DNA from: a virus
Taxonomy: Duplodnaviria > Caudoviricetes
Strand: one strand, 5' to 3'
DNA length: 45,569 bases
Virus record (IMG/VR): IMGVR_UViG_3300032314_000503
Location: 1-45,569 of that record
The position numbers and the translations under genes were made by a program. Positions within the stretch are counted from its first letter, which is position 1; every line of letters starts with the position of its first letter. The notes under the pieces were generated by a model, which worked only from the letters and a program-made list of their open reading frames with translations, did not search any database and was not told the origin of the DNA. Positions 2,139 through 45,569 of this stretch are shown here, one piece after another.

Positions 2139-2693
2139 ATGAAGTATCTTTTATTTGTTTACGGAAGCTATGATGAACACCCCTTTGTCATAAAGAATAT
2201 TGCTAAACTTTTAACTGAAGTATCAACCACTGATGTAAAATATCAGTTTGGAAGTTCAGGGGCGATTTATCACTTTACAACCATTATGAAAATTAGTGAA
2301 GTAAAGAAAAAAATCTCAGAACCACTACAAAAACTGACAGCTATGTACTTTATGGTACCATTCAATAAGAATGTGAATTTCTATATTGATGACAAAAAAA
2401 TAGAGAATCATTTGTTTAGTAGTACTGACACACCTGACAATTTGTCAGAAGGTAACATATTGGAATATAACTTGAGTGACCTTGATAAGGACCTTACTAG
2501 TATGACAAATGACTTTTTTATACAAAACCTGTCAGAGTTTATTGGTGTGGACCTAAATAAATTAGTTGAAGGAATGGATAATCTTGAGGAGACCCCAACC
2601 CTTAACGAAATTTTAGATAAGATTAACGAATGTGGATTTGAATCATTAACAACAACAGAAAAAATTTTATTAGATGAGTACTCTAAAGGATGA
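2139..2693 (+). CDS. Hypothetical protein with C-terminal DUF6576-like motif
   Basis: ORF; C-terminus LNEILDKINECGFESLTTTEKILL resembles DUF6576. Confidence 0.6.
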   Translation: MKYLLFVYGSYDEHPFVIKNIAKLLTEVSTTDVKYQFGSSGAIYHFTTIMKISEVKKKISEPLQKLTAMYFMVPFNKNVNFYIDDKKIENHLFSSTDTPDNLSEGNILEYNLSDLDKDLTSMTNDFFIQNLSEFIGVDLNKLVEGMDNLEETPTLNEILDKINECGFESLTTTEKILLDEYSKG

Positions 2694-3492
2694 AAAACAA
2701 GAAAAAAATACATCACCAATTAACCAAGATGAAATTCAGTATTATTTGAAAGAGCTTCGTAAAATTAAAGTGATGACACCTGAAAGGGAGCGTGAATTAT
2801 CCGCTAAAATTCAGAGTAATACTCTTAATACCGCTGAGCAAGAAGAGATACATAGAGAGCTTCTTGAAGGTAATTTGCGATTTGTCATTACAATTGCAAA
2901 ACAATACCAAAATCAAGGACTTGATTTATCTGACCTTATTGCCGAGGGTAATATTGGACTTATGAGGGCGATTAAAAACTTTGATTGGACTAAGAATCTC
3001 AGGTTTATATCATATGCGGTATGGTGGATTAAACAATCAATCAAACAATCATTGAATGAACACGCGAGGACAATTCGACTTCCAGTCAATGTCATACAAG
3101 ATTTTCAAAAGGAGAAAAAGAGAGTTGAAAAAACTGGTGACCGTATTGGTGACAAATTTGCGGGACTGCCTTTTACAATTAATCTTGAATCTGAGATTAA
3201 TGAAGATGGTGATACATTGATTGACCTTATTGAGAATAAAGATTCTCTTCGTCCTGACCATTCATTTAACAATGATAAACAAGTTAAAGAAGGTCTTATG
3301 TCAATTCTTGAGGTTCTTGACAGCCGCGAACGACAAATCATTATGGATTATTATGGACTTTCAGGTACACCACGAACTTTGGAAGATATTGGAGAGGACT
3401 TTAACCTTACAAAAGAAAGAGTTCGACAAATTAAAGAAAGGGGACTTCGAAAGTTGCGTAACGAATCATCATCTTTGTTTGATTATCTTTAA
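2674..3492 (+). CDS. RNA polymerase sigma-70 factor, RpoD/SigA-like, short Bacteroidota type without region 1.1
   Basis: Region 1.2 YLKEL, region 2 NLRFVITIAKQY..DLIAEGNIGL..RFISYAVWWIKQSI..RTIRLP, region 4 TLEDIG..LTKERVRQIK. Confidence 0.95.
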   Translation: MSTLKDEKQEKNTSPINQDEIQYYLKELRKIKVMTPERERELSAKIQSNTLNTAEQEEIHRELLEGNLRFVITIAKQYQNQGLDLSDLIAEGNIGLMRAIKNFDWTKNLRFISYAVWWIKQSIKQSLNEHARTIRLPVNVIQDFQKEKKRVEKTGDRIGDKFAGLPFTINLESEINEDGDTLIDLIENKDSLRPDHSFNNDKQVKEGLMSILEVLDSRERQIIMDYYGLSGTPRTLEDIGEDFNLTKERVRQIKERGLRKLRNESSSLFDYL

Positions 3493-10791: not shown

Positions 10792-11730
10792 TTGGAAAAT
10801 TATTATAATGTTTTGGGAGTTGCTGAAAATGCTACACAAGATGAAATAAAGAAGGCTTTCAGAAATAAATCTAAAGAACATCATCCTGATAGAGGTGGTA
10901 ATGAAGAAGAGTTTAAAAAAATAAATGAAGCGTATTCGGCTATTGGTGATGAACAAAAACGAGCTGAGTATGATAATCAAAGGAATAATCCATTTGCAAA
11001 TATGGGCGGTAATCCATTCGGAGGAGGTGACCCATTTGATATTTTTGCGTCAATGTTTGGTGGAGGAAGGGCTCAAAGAAAGGCACCTGATAAAATAATT
11101 GAATTAAATATTGGGGCGGTTGACTCATTTATGGGCAAGAAAATATATTTTAATTTCTCAAGGAAAACTAATTGTAATTCCTGTAATGGACAAGGAGGGG
11201 AAAGGATTACCTGTAACGGATGCGGCGGAAGTGGGGTTATCTCCCAAGTAATTGGTAACGGGTTTTTCCAAAATGTAATGCAATCACATTGTCCAAAATG
11301 TAACGGTAATGGATTTTCCTTCAAAACTGTATGTAATACTTGCTCTGGTGAGGGTAAAGTTAATGAAGATAAAGTTATTGATATTAACCTACCTGTTGGT
11401 ATATCTGATGGTCAAATGATTAAAGCTCAAGGTATGGGTGATTTTCATAATGGTATGTTTGGTGACCTAATTTTGAAAACAATCATTCGACCTCAAAATG
11501 GATTTGAAAAATCAGGAGGTGATTTGGTTTATACAAAATATCTTTCATTGGATGAATTTGATAATGATGAAATTAGAGTACCTCACCCTCATGGAGAACT
11601 AAGTATAAAATTACCTGAAACAATAGATACTGCTAATCCTTTAAAAGTTAGAGGAAAGGGTTATAGAAATGAAAATGGTGATTTTTATGTTAAATTGCAT
11701 GTAAAACATATGAGAACAAGTAAGGTATAG
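10792..11730 (+). CDS. dnaJ: Chaperone DnaJ
   Basis: J domain with HPD, G/F region, four CxxCxGxG repeats, C-terminal domain; TTG start. Confidence 0.95.
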   Translation: MENYYNVLGVAENATQDEIKKAFRNKSKEHHPDRGGNEEEFKKINEAYSAIGDEQKRAEYDNQRNNPFANMGGNPFGGGDPFDIFASMFGGGRAQRKAPDKIIELNIGAVDSFMGKKIYFNFSRKTNCNSCNGQGGERITCNGCGGSGVISQVIGNGFFQNVMQSHCPKCNGNGFSFKTVCNTCSGEGKVNEDKVIDINLPVGISDGQMIKAQGMGDFHNGMFGDLILKTIIRPQNGFEKSGGDLVYTKYLSLDEFDNDEIRVPHPHGELSIKLPETIDTANPLKVRGKGYRNENGDFYVKLHVKHMRTSKV

Positions 11731-29460: not shown

Positions 29461-29865
29461 ATGAAAGAAAGTTCAGGTATTATTGTCAAAGTTAAGGACA
29501 AATGTCTTCTATGTAAGAGAGCTAAGGAGAATGAAGAGCCAAATAAGTGGGCAATCCCGATGGGAGGAATTGAAGAAGGCGAAGACCCCAAAGAGGCGGC
29601 ATATAGAGAATTTATTGAAGAGATGGGGGTTGAAATTGATGGAGATATAAATTCTATTGGTAAAATTAACAGATACAATAAGACTGGAGGTATAAAAAGT
29701 ATTCTTCATTTATTTGTATATGAGACTAATAAAAAAATAATACCAGACCTTGAAAATGCTGTAGACGGTTTCGAACACTCTGAATGTGGGTATTTTAACA
29801 GAGAAGAAATGAAAGACCGGTATATGAGTGAAACTTTAAAAGATGTACTTTTAAAGTTTTTTTAA
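29461..29865 (+). CDS. NUDIX hydrolase
   Basis: Nudix box GGIEEGEDPKEAAYREFIEEMG. Confidence 0.92.
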   Translation: MKESSGIIVKVKDKCLLCKRAKENEEPNKWAIPMGGIEEGEDPKEAAYREFIEEMGVEIDGDINSIGKINRYNKTGGIKSILHLFVYETNKKIIPDLENAVDGFEHSECGYFNREEMKDRYMSETLKDVLLKFF

Positions 29866-29881
29866 AAAAAATCAGATTTCA

Positions 29882-30151
29882 CTTGTTCAGTTAAATATTT
29901 ATACTTACATTTGTAAAAGATTTGACACCTACAGGTGATGAAAGATACTCGGAAAGTTAAATCTAAAAAAAAATACAAATAAATTTGGTAGATTGAAAAA
30001 ATAACCATATATTTGTAAAGGATTTGAGACGGACAACGATTAAGATACAAGTCTCGAATCTTAAAAAAAAGTTTAAGAAAAATTTGACAGAACGAAAAAT
30101 TTGACTTAAATTTGTAAAACAATTCGGGAATGACCGAAAAGTTCTTTGAAA
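29882..30151 (+). promoter_or_regulatory. Three tandem Bacteroidota-type promoters followed by a hairpin and rrn-type boxA
   Basis: TAnnTTTG at 29906, 30008, 30107 (TTTG at 29984, 30083); GTTCTTTGAAA at 30141. Confidence 0.75.
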
Positions 30152-30154
30152 AGT

Positions 30155-30990
30155 AAGATTATCCATTCAGTGAAAGTAACCATCGGGTGATGATAACTGA
30201 TAAACGATAATGGGCCGTGTATGGTCCTTAAATAAACTACGAAAGTAGGATAAAGTGACCTCCCTCGTGTTGAGGAGGTTGCGGTTTCGAAAGGAACTCG
30301 AGTACACAAGTGGGATATCACAAGACCTTTAGTACCGAGGGTAACACTGTAGGGAAAGTGGTCAGGTGACTTGGCAAAGTGGATTGTCAAGTTGAGGTGG
30401 GAACACCAACAAGAATAACCCATAGGAATCAAGTAAGAAACGTAGCTCCAACTACACAATTGCGGATTCCAATACCGAAGGGTACTTAAAACCGAAAGGT
30501 AAGGTAGAGAACGAGTGGTGTCGCTACTACCCCTAAAGATGACCTACCAAGGTCTCTTTATGAAGTAAACTGAAAGTATGGAGATAGGGATATCTCACGG
30601 AGTAGTTTAGTATTTCGTCGCCCAAAAGGAGACGGAGCTTACGGTGGACCACTACTCTGACACATCCACGACACAATCTAAAATTATGAACAATAATTAA
30701 AGGAAAAGTGTCCATCAGGTTTGAGTGAAAGGTCACTACATAGTCACGGGTTGTCCGTGGCACAGAAAGACCCCAAGTCTAACTGTAGTTTTACGAAAGA
30801 CCTTTAATCCCGCAAGGATGAACTGGGGTGGCAACCTCGGAAAGAGTCAAGTAATAAGAGAGTAACTTAAACCTCAAGGAGTGGTAAACCTAAAAGACCG
30901 TGACTGAGAAATACTTCTCAAAAGGAAGTGGATACGAAGGGAAACAATAATCCTTCAAAAGGTTCTCAATCAAAGCTATAATCTCAGGCT
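30155..30990 (+). ncRNA. Large structured non-coding RNA, GOLLD-like; ends approximate
   Basis: ~830 nt, GC above genome background, no credible ORF, many hairpins with GNRA loops, lies between strong promoters and a tRNA. Confidence 0.7.
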
Positions 30991-31007
30991 TCGTTTAACT
31001 CTTACAT

Positions 31008-31080
31008 CGCAACTTAGAGCAGAGGCCAGCTCGTCAGGCTCATAACCTGAAGGTCGGAGGTTCGAATCCTTCAGTTGCAA
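31008..31080 (+). tRNA. tRNA-Met(CAT), initiator type
   Basis: Cloverleaf; TCAGG-CTCATAA-CCTGA arm; C1:A72 mismatch; no encoded CCA. Confidence 0.92.
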
Positions 31081-31088
31081 CAAATCAC

Positions 31089-31112
31089 AGGTGGAGAAAT
31101 CCACCTTTTTTT
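31089..31112 (+). terminator. Intrinsic terminator of the ncRNA-tRNA operon
   Basis: aggtgga-gaaa-tccacct plus T run. Confidence 0.85.
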
Positions 31113-31185
31113 ATTTATTAACGACACTTTAATATTTTATGTATGCAATTATCTTATTTTTAAAATATTTATAGAATAAGAAAAT

Positions 31186-31455
31186 ATGGATATGGAAATT
31201 AAAATTGGCGTGGTAGAATCGCACTACTACAAAGGAGTTAGAGAACTTCAATCGATTGATTTAGAGAAGTTTCCACTTATCAAGCAGTTCCTTGAGATAA
31301 ATCCTGATGCGACGGAACAGGACCTACTCAAGTATATGAAAAAAATTAAAGACAAAGATTTTCAAAATTTTTTAAATGAACTTACTTGGAATGAAATAAT
31401 GGAAGAAGATTTTTCAAAAAGTAAGACAAATTTTATTATTAAGGTGGAGAAATAA
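31186..31455 (+). CDS. Hypothetical phage protein
   Basis: ORF; TATTTATA at 31166. Confidence 0.65.
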   Translation: MDMEIKIGVVESHYYKGVRELQSIDLEKFPLIKQFLEINPDATEQDLLKYMKKIKDKDFQNFLNELTWNEIMEEDFSKSKTNFIIKVEK

Positions 31456-31491
31456 TTTGGTAGATTGATATTTTTATCGTATATTTGTATT

Positions 31492-31749
31492 ATGAAAGTA
31501 ACAGTTCTAAATATAATACATCCTGAATACGGTAAAATAGTTTCTGAAACATTTACTGATGCAACACAACTTAAACTCTTTTTGAACATGGTTCAAACTG
31601 ATATTGATTCGGGTCGAAAGTTCCATCACTTCAATGTTACGGACACTTTGATTCAGATTCCGGCAAACATTTTGAAGGAATGTTTAATTTTTACTACCTC
31701 AAACAAGGTAACTCACACTGAACAAGTTCTTGCAAAACTTTCAGTTTAA
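31492..31749 (+). CDS. Hypothetical protein, probably leaderless
   Basis: TTTG 31456 and TATATTTG 31480; ATG at predicted +1. Confidence 0.7.
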   Translation: MKVTVLNIIHPEYGKIVSETFTDATQLKLFLNMVQTDIDSGRKFHHFNVTDTLIQIPANILKECLIFTTSNKVTHTEQVLAKLSV

Positions 31750-34737: not shown

Positions 34738-36618
34738 ATGGGAAAAATTATAGGCGTGGATTTAGGCACAACAAATTCGTGTGTGGCAGTTATGGAAAAT
34801 GGAGAACCCATCGTTATCACAAACAGCGAGGGTAAAAGAACAACACCATCAATCATTGGGTTTACAAATGATGGTGAAAGAAAAGTAGGAGACCCGGCAA
34901 AGCGTCAGGCGGTTACAAACCCCGACAAAACCGTACACTCCATAAAGCGTTTCATGGGGGCAACTTATGATGAAACTAAAAAAGAAGGTAAGCGAGTTCC
35001 TTACAAAGTTGTGAAGGGTGACGGTGGAACACCACGAGTTCAAATCAACGATAAAAAGTATTCACCGCAAGAAATTTCTGCGATGGTACTTCAGAAGATG
35101 AAACAAACCGCAGAGGACTACCTCGGAGAGGAAGTAACAGAAGCGGTAATTACAGTACCGGCGTATTTCAACGACGCTCAGCGTCAGGCGACAAAAGAAG
35201 CGGGTGAAATTGCAGGTCTTACTGTAAAGCGTATCATTAATGAACCAACCGCTGCAGCACTTGCCTACGGTCTTGACAAGAAGACTCAAGACATGAAGAT
35301 TGTAGTGTTCGACTGTGGTGGTGGTACTCACGATGTATCAGTACTTGAACTCGGTGATGGTGTATTTGAAGTGTTGTCAACTGATGGTGATACTCACCTC
35401 GGTGGTGACGACTTCGACCAAGCAATCATTGACTGGCTTGTAAGTGAGTTTAAAGATGAAAATGGTTTGGATTTGACTCAAGACCCAATGGCTCTTCAGC
35501 GTCTTCGCGAGGGAGCTGAAAAGGCTAAAATTGAGTTGTCATCTTCACCATCAACTGAGATTAACCTCCCTTACATTATGCCAGTGGATGGTATTCCAAA
35601 ACACTTGGTTCGTAACTTGACTAAGGCTAAGTTCGAACAACTTGTTGACAGTCTTGTACAAAGAACAATTGCTCCTTGTAAAACAGCATTGAAAAATGCT
35701 GGACTCAATACTTCTGACATTGATGAAATAATCTTAGTTGGAGGCTCAACGAGAATTCCAGCAATACAAGAAGCAGTTAAGAAGTTCTTTGGTAAGGACC
35801 CATCCAAAGGTGTAAACCCTGATGAAGTTGTTGCTCTCGGAGCTGCAATACAAGGTGGAGTACTCGGTGGAGATGTGAAAGATGTTCTTCTTTTGGATGT
35901 AACACCACTTTCACTTGGTATTGAAACAATGGGCGGAGTATTTACAAAACTCATCAATGCTAATACCACAATTCCAACCAAGCAGTCACAAGTGTTCTCA
36001 ACCGCAGTTGACAATCAACCATCGGTTGAAATCCACGTACTCCAAGGAGAGCGTTCAATGGCAAAAGACAACCGTTCAATTGGAAGATTTATGTTGGATA
36101 GTATTCCACCAGCTATGAGAGGTATTCCTCAGATTGAAGTAACCTTTGACATTGATGCAAACGGTATCATTAATGTATCGGCAATGGACAAGGCAACCAA
36201 CAAACAACAATCAATTCGAATCGAATCTTCGTCAGGGCTTTCAAAAGAAGAAATTGAACGTATGAAACAAGAAGCTGAAATGAACGCTGACGCTGACAAG
36301 AAAGCAAAAGAAGATGTTGAAACAATTAATCAGGCTGACTCAACAATCTTTAACATTGAGAAATCAATGAAAGAAATGGAAGAGAAAATGACTGAGGAAG
36401 AAAAAACAAACATTACTTCCGAACTTGCAGAGTTGAAAGGTGCTCATTCTTCTAAAGACGTGGAAAAAATCAAAGAGACTATGGAAAAAGTTAATGAAAG
36501 TTTCCAAGCAGTATCGATGAGATTGTACACTGAATCCCAAGAATCGGCTCAAACTGAAGAAGTAACTGAGGACCGTGAGGTTACAAATGTTGACTTCGAA
36601 GAAGTTGAAGCAAAGTAA
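34738..36618 (+). CDS. dnaK: Chaperone DnaK (Hsp70)
   Basis: [39 protein letters not shown]-terminal DFEEV. Confidence 0.98.
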
Positions 36619-38549: not shown

Positions 38550-39257
38550 ATGAAAAAAATTTTATTTTCTTTTATCCTAACCATTTTGAGCTTGGTTTCT
38601 TTTGCTCAAAATTCGGTAGTTGACATTATTGTTAACAGTGCGGACCACGACACATTGGAAGCCGCTGTAATCGCTGCAGAACTTGCCGATGATTTATCAG
38701 GACCTGGTCCATTCACAGTATTTGCACCGACAGACGCAGCATTCGCAGCACTTCCTTCTGGTACAATTGAAACCCTATTAGCGGACCCAACTGGTACACT
38801 TGCTCAGATTCTATTGTATCACGTAGTTGGAGCTCAAGCCCTTTCAACAGATTTGAGTGACGGTCAAACTATCACCACCTTGCTTGGTGAAGATATTACG
38901 GTTACAATTGATACGAATGGCGTAATGATTAATAATGCAATGGTTGTTGTTGCTGACATTTTAGCAGACAATGGAGTGGTTCACGTAATTGACGCAGTGT
39001 TGATACCACAACTACCAAGTTCTGTATTAACCACTGAAACTATGAAATTGAATATTCAAAACCCTGTAACGGAAAATATTAACATTCCATCAGCAGGTGA
39101 TTCAAATGTTCAGATTTTTACACCTTCAGGCCAAGTTGTATATTCTCAAAACTTCAATGGGTCAATCGATATCGACACCCGTAATCTTTCATCAGGTATT
39201 TACCTTCTCCAAGTAGAAGCTGAAAACTTTAATGGGGTTACAAAAATCGTTAAGTAA
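38550..39257 (+). CDS. Fasciclin (FAS1) domain protein with signal peptide and T9SS type A C-terminal sorting domain
   Basis: FTVFAPTDAAF, ILLYHV, NGVVHVIDAVL; C-terminal NPV..NLSSGIYLL..TKIVK. Confidence 0.9.
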   Translation: MKKILFSFILTILSLVSFAQNSVVDIIVNSADHDTLEAAVIAAELADDLSGPGPFTVFAPTDAAFAALPSGTIETLLADPTGTLAQILLYHVVGAQALSTDLSDGQTITTLLGEDITVTIDTNGVMINNAMVVVADILADNGVVHVIDAVLIPQLPSSVLTTETMKLNIQNPVTENINIPSAGDSNVQIFTPSGQVVYSQNFNGSIDIDTRNLSSGIYLLQVEAENFNGVTKIVK

Positions 39258-43778: not shown

Positions 43779-44055
43779 TAACATTATGGATTACTTTCAC
43801 TTTGAAAAAGTTCAAAGGGTAATGAAGTTTTTGAATTGGACTTGGGCATTTGCTGAGGAAGGAGTTCCGACTGAACCTGAATTGAGACAGCAAGTTAGAA
43901 GATTACTTAAAGAATCTTTTGAGGGTAAACAGTCAATGGCAATTGGTGGATTCCATGTGAGATATAAATCTTACGAAAGTGGTGAAGAAACTATTGAATT
44001 ATTCTTCTCTGTTGACCATTGGGATGAAACAATAGAAAAAGATTTGGTAGAATAG
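43750..44055 (+). CDS. Hypothetical phage protein
   Basis: ORF. Confidence 0.7.
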   Translation: MTQKQQEAIDNIMDYFHFEKVQRVMKFLNWTWAFAEEGVPTEPELRQQVRRLLKESFEGKQSMAIGGFHVRYKSYESGEETIELFFSVDHWDETIEKDLVE

Positions 44056-44090
44056 AAATTTAGCCGTATATTTGTAGAAGTTCTTTGAAA
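44043..44090 (+). promoter_or_regulatory. Bacteroidota-type promoter plus boxA heading the RNA array
   Basis: TTTG 44043, TATATTTG 44067, GTTCTTTGAAA 44080. Confidence 0.8.
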
Positions 44091-44100
44091 ATATTTAAAA

Positions 44101-44225
44101 GGTGGGGTGGCAGACGAAAGTTAGATATATCCAAGTCAATCGTAGCTACGGTGTTTTTTAAACACGATGGATAAACGACAAGTAGAGCTTTAAGGGAATA
44201 AGTCGCTCTTATTCCTCCCCCACCA
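44101..44225 (+). ncRNA. Structured RNA closed by a 7-bp acceptor-like stem
   Basis: GGTGGGG/CCCCACC-A; internal TATCCA/TGGATA, GTGTTT/AAACAC, GGAATAAG/CTTATTCC. Confidence 0.6.
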
Positions 44226-44234
44226 ACTACATTA

Positions 44235-44369
44235 TAGGTTGATTGGGGAATGATTATACCAATAGTTTGAGAGTGGATACCGACTGGTATAATCGGAGTT
44301 GGCAGGTATTCACCTGAAGTAATGCCAATCGTAAAAGGGGTTGTCCACTCGACCATCTTCCCCTTACCT
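44235..44369 (+). ncRNA. Structured pseudoknot-capable RNA
   Basis: Ends pair; GATTATACCA/TGGTATAATC with loop GAGTGGAT pairing to downstream GTCCACTC; TTGGCA/TGCCAA. Confidence 0.6.
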
Positions 44370-44464
44370 AAAACACAGAGTGGCGCAGGTTGATACTACT
44401 TCGCAAGTAGATTGATACAGAGTAAAAAGAGGTGGGGGAAACCACTCATTAACCCACCCAACAT

Positions 44465-44544
44465 AGTCAGGTATGCGTAATGAGGATTGGTTCCAAATCC
44501 TAGAAATAGGTTGCCTTGGTGAGGTTCGATTCCTCGCCTGACTA
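44465..44544 (+). ncRNA. tRNA-like RNA 2 (no recognisable D-arm or canonical anticodon loop)
   Basis: AGTCAGG/CCTGACT-A; GAGG-TTCGATT-CCTC. Confidence 0.7.
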
Positions 44545-44610
44545 CAGAAGGTGTCAACCCCGAAACATAGAAAGAAAAAGTTGATGACAGCTTGGAAAGA
44601 CAAGCAATAT

Positions 44611-44718
44611 AGTCAGGTGGCGGAATGGCGCCAGTAGTAATATCACGAGTTCAGTAATCCTCCCAATCGGACGTGAATCAAGGAGGTGACTATACAAGTT
44701 CGATTCTTGTCCTGGCTA
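44611..44718 (+). ncRNA. tRNA-like RNA 3
   Basis: AGTCAGG/CCTGGCT-A; TGGCGGAATGG; ACAAG-TTCGATT-CTTGT. Confidence 0.75.
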
Positions 44719-44721
44719 CAA

Positions 44722-44924
44722 TGAGTAAGAGGTGCTCAGAGTCTTTAGTTCAAGACTTAAACAATGAACTCGCAGAATGTCTACGGCGCGAGTGGGACAT
44801 CGTGGGATAAAGGGATAGACACATTTCCTCCCAGTAGTGTTGGATGTTTTTAACGGGTAAGACCAGCAGGTTTTTAAGAAATAGAAAACCGATAAATCTA
44901 CTCACCATTAATCTCAAGGTGGGG
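44722..44924 (+). ncRNA. Multi-pseudoknot structured RNA
   Basis: Several hairpins whose loops match downstream sequence; terminal hairpin with TAATCTCA loop. Confidence 0.55.
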
Positions 44925-44930
44925 AAACAT

Positions 44931-45053
44931 AGTCAGGTGGCGGAATTGGTAGACGCAGCTGTGATGATTTTGTTGGAAGGTGAATCTCCTTAAACTATTA
45001 GCAAGGTTAATCAGCTCCCAATCATCGTACAGGTTCGATTCCTGTTCTGACTA
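44931..45053 (+). ncRNA. tRNA-like RNA 4 (Leu-type D-arm, expanded anticodon region)
   Basis: AGTCAGG/TCTGACT-A; TGGCGGAATTGGTAGACGC; AGCTG/CAGCT enclosing 50 nt; ACAGG-TTCGATT-CCTGT. Confidence 0.8.
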
Positions 45054-45054
45054 C

Positions 45055-45248
45055 ACGTTCCGACTAATCATCGGATAGTATGCCCAATACGATGAGAAAT
45101 AGATTGATTATCTATATGGGAACGTAGAATGTATAGGGAAAACATTCAGGTTTGTCTACCCGAAACCCGCAAGGTTCAAAAGATTATTCCTAACTCAAGT
45201 AATTGAGGACAGCCACAACACCTGTTAGTTGGATAAAGTAGGGTGTTA
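45055..45248 (+). ncRNA. Structured non-coding spacer RNA(s)
   Basis: ACGTTCC/GGAACGT multiloop, GAATGT/ACATTC, CTCAA-GTAA-TTGAG, AACACC/GGTGTT. Confidence 0.5.
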
Positions 45249-45254
45249 ACATAT

Positions 45255-45327
45255 GGTCGGTTCGTATAGAGGTTTAGTACATTGCCCTTTCACGGCAGAA
45301 ACACGGGTTCGATTCCCGTACCGACTA
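45255..45327 (+). tRNA. tRNA-Glu(TTC)
   Basis: Cloverleaf; TTGCC-CTTTCAC-GGCAG; ACGGG-TTCGATT-CCCGT. Confidence 0.92.
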
Positions 45328-45395
45328 CAACTGAAAAACTATAGTTCATATCTAACTCGCGTTTTGTTCAAGATATTTACTATAAAACCTAACAA

Positions 45396-45569
45396 ATGAA
45401 ACACGTATTTTTATTACTATGCAGCATAGTAACGCTTAACACATTTTCACAAACTTTTAAGGACCCTGTGTCTTTTAAGTCCGACTTATGGCTTGTTCAA
45501 ACTTTTGAGGAAGGCACATTCGTTGCCCCTGATACTATCTCAATAACTTGGGATATTAAAAAAGTTAAA
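45396..45569 (+). CDS. Secreted hypothetical protein, 3'-truncated by the window
   Basis: MKHVFLLLCSIVTLNTFSQ signal-peptide-like start; frame open to the end. Confidence 0.6.
   Translation, partial: MKHVFLLLCSIVTLNTFSQTFKDPVSFKSDLWLVQTFEEGTFVAPDTISITWDIKKVK

Follow-up and report, generated by a model that had tools for sequence, protein, structure and literature searches.

A full-length GOLLD RNA gene in a likely Bacteroidota jumbo phage, probably transcribed together with an initiator-like tRNA-Met

The giant RNA GOLLD was reportedly first described in 2009. Its location near tRNAs in phages is established (PMC5737381; PMC12286853; PMC12990946). For the env-38 GOLLD, cryo-electron microscopy has revealed a 14-mer cage (Kretsch et al., 2025; PMC12286853). 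The env-38 RNA is 833 nt long and consists of two domains, nucleotides 1–420 and 421–833, with a disordered linker at nucleotides 497–538; it is located downstream of a Met-tRNA, and ribosomes bind GOLLD in pull-downs (PMC12286853). Cage assembly is known for env-38 and for the GOLLD of Streptococcus agalactiae (PMC12286853; PMC12990946). Here we analyze the IMG/VR virus record IMGVR_UViG_3300032314_000503, a stretch of 45,569 nt that we call the window, in which an earlier note, made from the letters of the DNA and a list of its open reading frames, had placed a GOLLD-like or entirely new giant RNA of ~830 nt, starting at 30155 and followed by an initiator tRNA, and had assigned the DNA to a phage of Bacteroidota.

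The tract in question is a full-length gene of GOLLD, a known giant phage RNA, with both domains intact. In the covariance search with Rfam models that the earlier note had suggested, the GOLLD model RF02032 matches positions 30598–30990 of the + strand from end to end (model 1–416 of 416, not truncated) with a score of 321.2 bits and an E-value of 2.5e-91, compared to a gathering score of 150 bits, which settles the membership in the family. The model covers only the 3′ domain of GOLLD, 393 nt here, and the 440 nt on the 5′ side lie outside it. From the first helix (P1, at 30158) to the end of the model match the RNA spans 833 nt, in keeping with the size that had been estimated; the proposed start is close to that of the folded RNA, and the transcript itself likely begins ~35 nt further upstream. 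Within the 3′ domain, the pseudoknot marked in Rfam is present as a 10-bp long-range pairing of 30717–30726 with 30866–30875, made entirely of standard pairs. The A/U-rich variable linker of this domain (30660–30716, + strand), which the Rfam alignment leaves unpaired and which has fewer nucleotides here than in the model, corresponds to nucleotides 503–559 counted from 30158 and differs in length among relatives (alignment columns ~715–790). The description of the tract as non-coding and relatively G+C-rich also holds: the G+C content is 42–43% over 30122–30990 versus 30.5% over 1–29865, and the longest open reading frame (ORF) on the + strand between 29866 and 31185 encodes 46 aa, while two longer ORFs on the minus strand (117 and 76 aa) matched no Pfam family. 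The Rfam search of 29800–31300 at E-values up to 1 gave no match to ROOL, RNase P, tmRNA or introns and, apart from tRNA, no second family; ROOL had no match at the gathering score anywhere in the window. Furthermore, all the hairpins that had been named from the letters are present at the expected places on the + strand, each within a helix conserved in relatives, namely CTAC-GAAA-GTAG (30237–30248), GACCTCC/GGAGGTT (30257–30263 with 30274–30280), ACC-GAAA-GGT (30491–30500) and GAAGGG/TCCTTC (~30936–30956).

The 5′ domain (30158–30597, + strand), which falls outside the Rfam model, was delimited using aligned relatives and covariation. A 28-position motif of this domain occurs in at least 119 fetched IMG/VR stretches (estimate, ~280), and a motif of the 3′ domain likewise in at least 119 (estimate, ~180). 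Identity to the window over 29860–31120 reaches 96.8% and 94.0% in the two closest relatives, and dozens more are 74–85% identical over the whole RNA; the 5′ domain aligns with relatives over its full length at 74–97% identity. Among the 43 distinct full-length copies, that of the window included, 37 were given to RNAalifold, and six with unalignable 5′ ends (from loci L006, L016, L018, L025, L060 and L078) were left out. The resulting structure comprises 181 pairs, 125 of which show at least one compensatory change, and the helices of the 3′ domain covary across the 37 relatives. In the 5′ domain, there are 123 pairs in 23 helices, with 96.4% of the cells paired. As many as 75 of these 123 pairs are changed on both sides, compared to 48.5 ± 3.0 in shuffles, none of 500 of which reached 75, and to 20–31 when the partners were slid by 1–3 columns, a control that is generous because the structure of the 5′ domain came from a separate RNAalifold run on the same sequences, although the margin is still large. 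Thus, the 5′ half folds into a domain that is conserved, with covariation, in many phage contigs, and conserved structure is found in both parts of the RNA.

Going by the published description, the locus resembles env-38 in its two domains, its length of 833 nt, a domain boundary near nucleotide 420–440 and a linker at the same relative place, as well as in the phage setting and the neighboring tRNA-Met. It differs in that the tRNA-Met stands before env-38 but behind GOLLD here, and in coming from a jumbo phage of freshwater type that likely infects Bacteroidota. The GOLLDs of S. agalactiae and Mycolicibacterium belong to the same family and share the tie to tRNA clusters (PMC12990946). According to the available part of that paper, these RNAs are prophage-borne or bacterial, have reduced or different 5′ domains and form oligomers of other numbers, and the Mycolicibacterium RNA contains a tRNA-Phe embedded in its linker (PMC12990946), whereas the tRNA of the window lies outside the RNA. 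ROOL is likewise a large, ornate, phage-associated and cage-forming RNA found near tRNAs (Weinberg et al., 2017; PMC5737381), but its sequence and fold are unrelated to those of GOLLD. What is new is this copy of GOLLD; the family and its place near phage tRNAs are already known. A search of the available literature found nothing that links GOLLD with Bacteroidetes phages.

With respect to the phage and its host, the IMG/VR record, classified as ‘linear’, has a CheckV completeness of 16%, which implies a genome of ~280 kb; the window represents only part (~16%) of the genome of a jumbo phage, so that the phage half of the earlier assignment stands. The Bacteroidota half is supported indirectly. 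A fasciclin-domain protein (38550–39257; Pfam) carries the sorting tail Por_Secre_tail, a domain that we take to be part of the type IX secretion system of Bacteroidota, and the promoters upstream of GOLLD are of the type TTTG / ~20 nt / TAnnTTTG, presumably the housekeeping promoter consensus of Bacteroidota. Given this domain and this promoter type, the host is likely a member of Bacteroidota. Among 185,579 species genomes, the 5′-domain motif of GOLLD matched a single contig of 25.7 kb in a Halanaerobium metagenome-assembled genome; this contig may itself be phage DNA, and the match does not give the host. In the collection of named phages the only match was LR745206.1, a 634-kb uncultured phage.

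Behind GOLLD, on the same strand, lies a tRNA-Met gene with a CAU anticodon and initiator hallmarks (31008–31080/81; Rfam tRNA, 63 bits, and ARAGORN). The spacer between the end of the GOLLD match at 30990 and the start of the tRNA measures 17 nt (30991–31007), exactly as had been noted. Bacterial initiator tRNAs are marked by the absence of a Watson-Crick 1:72 pair, by A11:U24 and by a run of three G:C pairs at the foot of the anticodon stem. In the tRNA of the window, C1 and A72 are unpaired, positions 2–7 are fully paired and A73 is present, as judged from the sequence with a register check, and A11 stands opposite U24 in the D stem GAGC/GCUC. Against initiator identity, the anticodon stem UCAGG/CCUGA has two consecutive G:C pairs (G30:C40 and G31:C39) followed by A29:U41, not three, and because of this shortfall we call the tRNA only initiator-like; the earlier designation as an initiator is upheld with regard to C1·A72, A11:U24, A73 and the anticodon, and fails at the third G:C pair. 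Among 88 unique relatives, 17 have a tRNA-Met starting 10–24 nt behind GOLLD, 2 have a tRNA-Ser and 69 have no tRNA within 150 nt, by an approximate gap measure that gives 18 for the window. When 700 nt upstream and 150 nt downstream are considered, tRNA-Met is present in 33 of 103 relatives and every other tRNA type in at most four loci, and 64 relatives are without any tRNA. An approximate best-register test divided the 34 tRNA-Met genes adjacent to GOLLD into 21 with an unpaired 1:72 and A73, 8 with a fully paired stem and 5 that are ambiguous.

The order of elements on the + strand suggests one transcription unit: three tandem promoter-like sites, a 5′ hairpin, the motif GTTCTTTGAAA, the 833-nt GOLLD, the 17-nt spacer, the tRNA-Met and a terminator. 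The promoters belong to three direct repeats of ~100 nt each (family D1), which start at 29863, 29965 and 30064. Promoter-like site P1 (TTG, 20 nt, TAcaTTTG; 29883–29913) was recognized from the repeat and its sequence and was not listed by the strict pattern scan, its −33 element being imperfect; sites P2 (TTTG, 20 nt, TATATTTG; 29984–30015) and P3 (TTTG, 20 nt, TAAATTTG; 30083–30114), the latter nearest to the RNA, were found by the scan. This promoter block aligns in most relatives, and promoters of the TTTG/TAnnTTTG type recur before other genes of the window. Promoter P1 is followed by a weak hairpin that is indistinguishable from shuffles (29918–29964; −8.7 kcal/mol, z −1.27), and promoter P2 by a 12-bp hairpin (30019–30062; −14.6 kcal/mol, z −4.56) that none of 200 shuffles equaled. 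A hairpin of the latter type also follows a promoter in LR745206.1 (locus L002, ~1520–1550), its stem changed on both sides; in the relative L132, such a hairpin immediately precedes the boxA-like motif of a different RNA gene. From the position of P3, transcription likely starts at ~30120, just ahead of the small 5′ leader hairpin TTCGG-GAATGA-CCGAA (30123–30138), which is not significant on its own (z −1.1) and is kept at the same position in relatives with differing stem sequences. At the other end, the single terminator that had been noted corresponds to a likely intrinsic terminator at 31089–31113, composed of a 7-bp G+C-rich stem followed by T7 (−11.1 kcal/mol, z −3.69). On this layout, GOLLD and tRNA-Met likely share one transcript.

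The leader motif GTTCTTTGAAA (30141–30151, + strand) is single-stranded, boxA-like and conserved in relatives, and lies 17 nt before the first GOLLD helix. Exact copies occur at only two sites in the window, 30141 and ~44079, both just after a promoter that heads an RNA-only tract. Of 101 unique relatives, 85 have the motif 40–200 nt upstream of the 5′-domain motif, and of 32 loci retrieved through the 3′ motif alone, 27 have it at a distance of 689–815 nt ahead of that 3′ motif; over 367 kb, same-strand hits outnumber antisense hits by 157 to 20. Copies of the motif with a promoter upstream are separated from it by a hairpin whose sequence varies. LR745206.1 (634,780 bp; locus L002) shares much of this arrangement: it has a GOLLD with a score of 287 bits and a 5′ domain that can be aligned (75% column identity), and the hairpin with the GTTCTTTGAAA leader, the promoter type and a tRNA-Met with an unpaired 1:72 are all present. 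It differs in that the tRNA-Met lies directly upstream of GOLLD, that oversized tRNA-like units follow GOLLD and that the 5′ domain contains an extra insertion of ~45 nt.

With regard to the role of this leader, several hints come from the parallel with ribosomal RNA (rrn) operons, which, like this locus, combine in one unit tandem promoters, a tRNA and a long RNA that is structured and untranslated. Such operons also carry spacer boxA elements, and the copy of the motif in L002 that stands after an upstream tRNA and a hairpin, with no promoter between them, is similarly placed. In Bacillus subtilis, according to PMC13753749, the rrn operons open with a small hairpin, and a boxA-like sequence to which NusB binds comes immediately after it. 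The promoter, the small hairpin and the single-stranded U-rich motif of the window stand in the same order, and positions 30139–30151 agree with 11 of the 13 positions of the B. subtilis consensus printed in that source (PMC13753749). By this analogy, we tentatively suggest that the leader could load host NusB/S10 for antitermination in the manner of rRNA operons, a reading to which we give somewhat less than even chances. A search of the available literature found nothing that links GOLLD with boxA or antitermination, and the available portion of PMC12990946 mentions antitermination only in the title of a reference.

Conceivably, the leader is instead a 5′ processing or maturation signal, or a site for a phage or host protein, on stable RNAs, a possibility that we take seriously while holding it to be doubtful as well. 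Among 42 further same-strand copies of the motif in the GOLLD-centered loci, 10 lie 12–30 nt before the mature 5′ end of a tRNA gene, the corresponding distance to the first GOLLD helix being 17 nt, and three lie directly after a terminator; such positions, a short way ahead of individual tRNA genes or behind terminators, set the motif apart from the rrn leader and would also fit a processing or 5′-leader signal. Moreover, LR745206.1 shows no genome-wide enrichment of the motif (5 + 5 copies versus 5 + 8 for the reversed control), only 2 of its 10 sites lie at RNA genes, and the motif is absent from all four of its large tRNA arrays. These observations count against the antitermination reading, and the idea that the leader is the general head of all stable-RNA arrays is not upheld in this phage. 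What speaks against a processing signal is the order of promoter, hairpin and motif, together with the agreement of 11 of 13 bases described above, and the spacer-like copy in L002. Should the leader indeed act as a boxA, a small hairpin followed by GUUCUUUGAAA would be expected in the rRNA leaders or spacers of freshwater Bacteroidota.

The presence of the locus in sequencing libraries was assessed in 24 listed runs, 20 of which hold at least half of the sampled words of 29860–31130. Six of these 20 are river metatranscriptomes with six study codes, possibly from one campaign. In all six, pieces that are at least 99% identical to the window cover ~30140–30969, and the summed word depth on the RNA body is in the range of 10^3 to 10^4 (thousands to tens of thousands), to which many related GOLLDs add. 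The RNA body is thus abundant in the contigs of river RNA libraries. On both protein-coding flanks the depth is zero in all six runs, which we do not count as proof of a discrete transcript. The DNA run X2, which belongs to the study that also yielded the possible source and hence is not independent, carries the whole 3 kb at a depth of 6–7 on the flanks and 18–48 on the RNA. Apparent ends at ~30140–30176 and 30932–30969, including adapter-bearing ends at 30176 and 30964, are unreadable as RNA ends given that these are contigs. In the RNA-library contigs of runs X15, X16 and X20, 59 nt of 30151–30211 are replaced by 5 other letters. Splicing was considered and rejected as the origin of this joint, which fits co-occurring GOLLDs with a shorter first arm such as those of L043 and L199.

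Altogether, we regard it as highly probable that the window carries a full-length GOLLD in a jumbo phage, likely of Bacteroidota, that the gene likely forms one unit with the tRNA-Met, and that its RNA is a predicted cage-former. A number of points weigh against this composite reading. The start site, the 3′ end and the co-transcription are read from the layout; the phylum of the host is deduced from a single domain and a promoter type; the formation of a cage is taken from a relative, and the likeness to env-38 is one of published description. Furthermore, the RNA runs are kept as contigs, which report presence in RNA libraries rather than ends, strand or level, and only one RNA-library contig spans 30972–31085, at a depth of 8.3 that could come from DNA. 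Finally, a sigma-70-like site (TTCAAA, 17 nt, TATAAT; 10 of 12 positions) at 30954–30982, within the 3′ end of GOLLD, could in principle drive the tRNA separately.

This last observation leads to the alternative that GOLLD and tRNA-Met are separate transcripts, the tRNA promoter lying inside the 3′ end of GOLLD and the GOLLD 3′ end being made in some other way, which we consider improbable. In addition to the sigma-70-like site, it is favored by the 69 of 88 relatives without a tRNA within 150 nt behind GOLLD, since the RNA can evidently end without one, and, as a weak hint given that they are contigs, by the high-depth pieces of the RNA libraries that stop at ~30932–30969, one of them running into adapter at 30964. 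However, the site coincides with the final hairpin and loop of GOLLD, which are conserved for the sake of structure, and it is not of the TTTG/TAnnTTTG type of the other promoters of this phage. Moreover, no terminator is present between GOLLD and the tRNA-Met, and the spacing of the two is tight in relatives, at 10–24 nt in 17 loci. A single transcript encompassing GOLLD and the tRNA-Met remains the preferred reading.

Two further alternatives fare far worse. A long-range helix that would close the whole RNA, with the leader motif as its 5′ strand and the conserved segment CUCAAGGAG of the 3′ domain (30875–30881) as the partner, is very unlikely, and we reject this pairing: RNAalifold with ribosum scoring does pair 30142–30148 with 30875–30881 in 7 pairs, but no covariation between the two segments is seen across 74 unique relatives, an A of the leader faces C in 5 loci and T in 3, the central C-G pair is lost in 4 with no compensating change, and variation in the supposed partner is not mirrored in the leader, which remains constant; the other RNAalifold run, on the 37 sequences, leaves the leader unpaired, and the motif also precedes tRNAs that have no such partner. 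The motif is conserved as a sequence, not as a strand of a helix. Least credible of all is a new giant RNA class resembling GOLLD only in size and setting, which was possible before the covariance search and could still appeal to the 5′ 440 nt without a family model, but which falls with the end-to-end match of RF02032 at twice the curated cut-off, with the contiguity of the 5′ and 3′ halves in 37 of 37 aligned relatives and with the variable 5′ domain that belongs to the published GOLLD description in the available texts (PMC12286853; PMC12990946).

The leader motif is also found at the head of other RNA-like sequences. In the relatives L030, L038, L040 and L132, it heads another conserved RNA-like sequence, starting with GGTTAYAGAAACAGTCTAGGTCCG, 280–440 nt upstream of GOLLD, and in L004, L008, L015 and L029 a G-rich sequence (GCAGGCGGG...). 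In the window itself, a second RNA-only tract (44043–45330, 41–45% G+C) opens with a promoter at 44043–44074 and the GTTCTTTGAAA copy at ~44079. Some 360 nt at 44100–44460 look folded and are followed by three oversized tRNA-like units (~44463–44547, 44612–44722 and 44931–45056) with normal T arms and acceptor stems, and then by a tRNA-Glu (45255–45328), the only Rfam match with an E-value below 1 in 44000–45569. With introns allowed, ARAGORN reports 44931–45054 as a tRNA with a 43-nt intron and the anticodon TTA, which would read the stop codon TAA, and 44465–44545 as a low-scoring tRNA-Phe. In LR745206.1, whose record has 61 tRNA matches in total, repeated tRNA-like genes of 90–96 nt with a long extra arm flank GOLLD (1621–1716, 2817–2912 and 2995–3084 of L002); ARAGORN calls only the last of them, as a 90-nt tRNA-Pro (agg).

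As for the neighboring protein-coding genes, a NUDIX hydrolase gene (29461–29865) stands directly upstream of GOLLD on the same strand, and a homolog in the same place and orientation ends 208–627 nt before GOLLD in 26 of the 114 unique loci with at least 500 nt of upstream DNA. This adjacency may be plain synteny among related phages or may reflect a link to the chemistry of RNA 5′ ends. Downstream, a 94-aa ORF without a Pfam family (31465–31749) has homologs behind GOLLD on the same strand in 14 of the 105 unique loci with at least 700 nt of downstream DNA, and an 89-aa ORF (31186–31455) recurs in 3 relatives only. Elsewhere in the window, Pfam matches identify a sigma-70-family protein with regions 1.2, 2 and 4 (2674–3492), DnaK (Hsp70, 857 bits) and DnaJ (34738–36618 and 10792–11730), thioredoxin, glutaredoxin, several DNA methylases and homing endonucleases. 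The G+C content of the DnaK gene, 41–47% versus 32% for the window, suggests a fairly recent acquisition.

Thus, the following sequence of events can be envisaged. Transcription would begin near 30120 at the Bacteroidota-type promoter, with two further promoter-like repeats upstream, and the polymerase would pass the 5′ hairpin and the boxA-like motif, the 833-nt GOLLD and the tRNA before stopping at 31089–31113. The leader might load NusB/S10 and so, in the manner of rRNA operons, allow read-through of this long RNA, which is untranslated and highly folded. Cleavage by RNase P at the 5′ end of the tRNA (31008) would then free GOLLD with a short trailer, and the RNA is predicted, by likeness to its solved relative, to assemble into a multi-copy RNA-only cage. 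As a working guess, this cage could act in the handling of translation or tRNAs by the phage during lytic growth; we favor a role connected with translation and the initiator tRNA because of the statistics of the tRNA-Met neighbor and because, in the available account, ribosomes bind GOLLD in pull-downs (PMC12286853). The boldest extension, that GOLLD genes of freshwater Bacteroidota phages mimic rRNA operons, with NusB/S10 both transcribing the cage RNA and helping it fold, and with cage and initiator tRNA together redirecting translation initiation, strikes us as rather unlikely, although we offer it for consideration.

One more copy of GOLLD by itself changes little. The value of this locus is that it presents a clean natural transcription unit, with candidates for the promoter, leader and terminator, a link to an initiator-like tRNA and many close relatives. 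If the leader does serve antitermination, this would explain how phages make an untranslated RNA of 830 nt, and it would provide a handle, through NusB/S10 or mutants of the leader, for switching GOLLD off in a phage. Furthermore, the recurring tRNA-Met neighbor narrows the guesses at the function of GOLLD towards translation.

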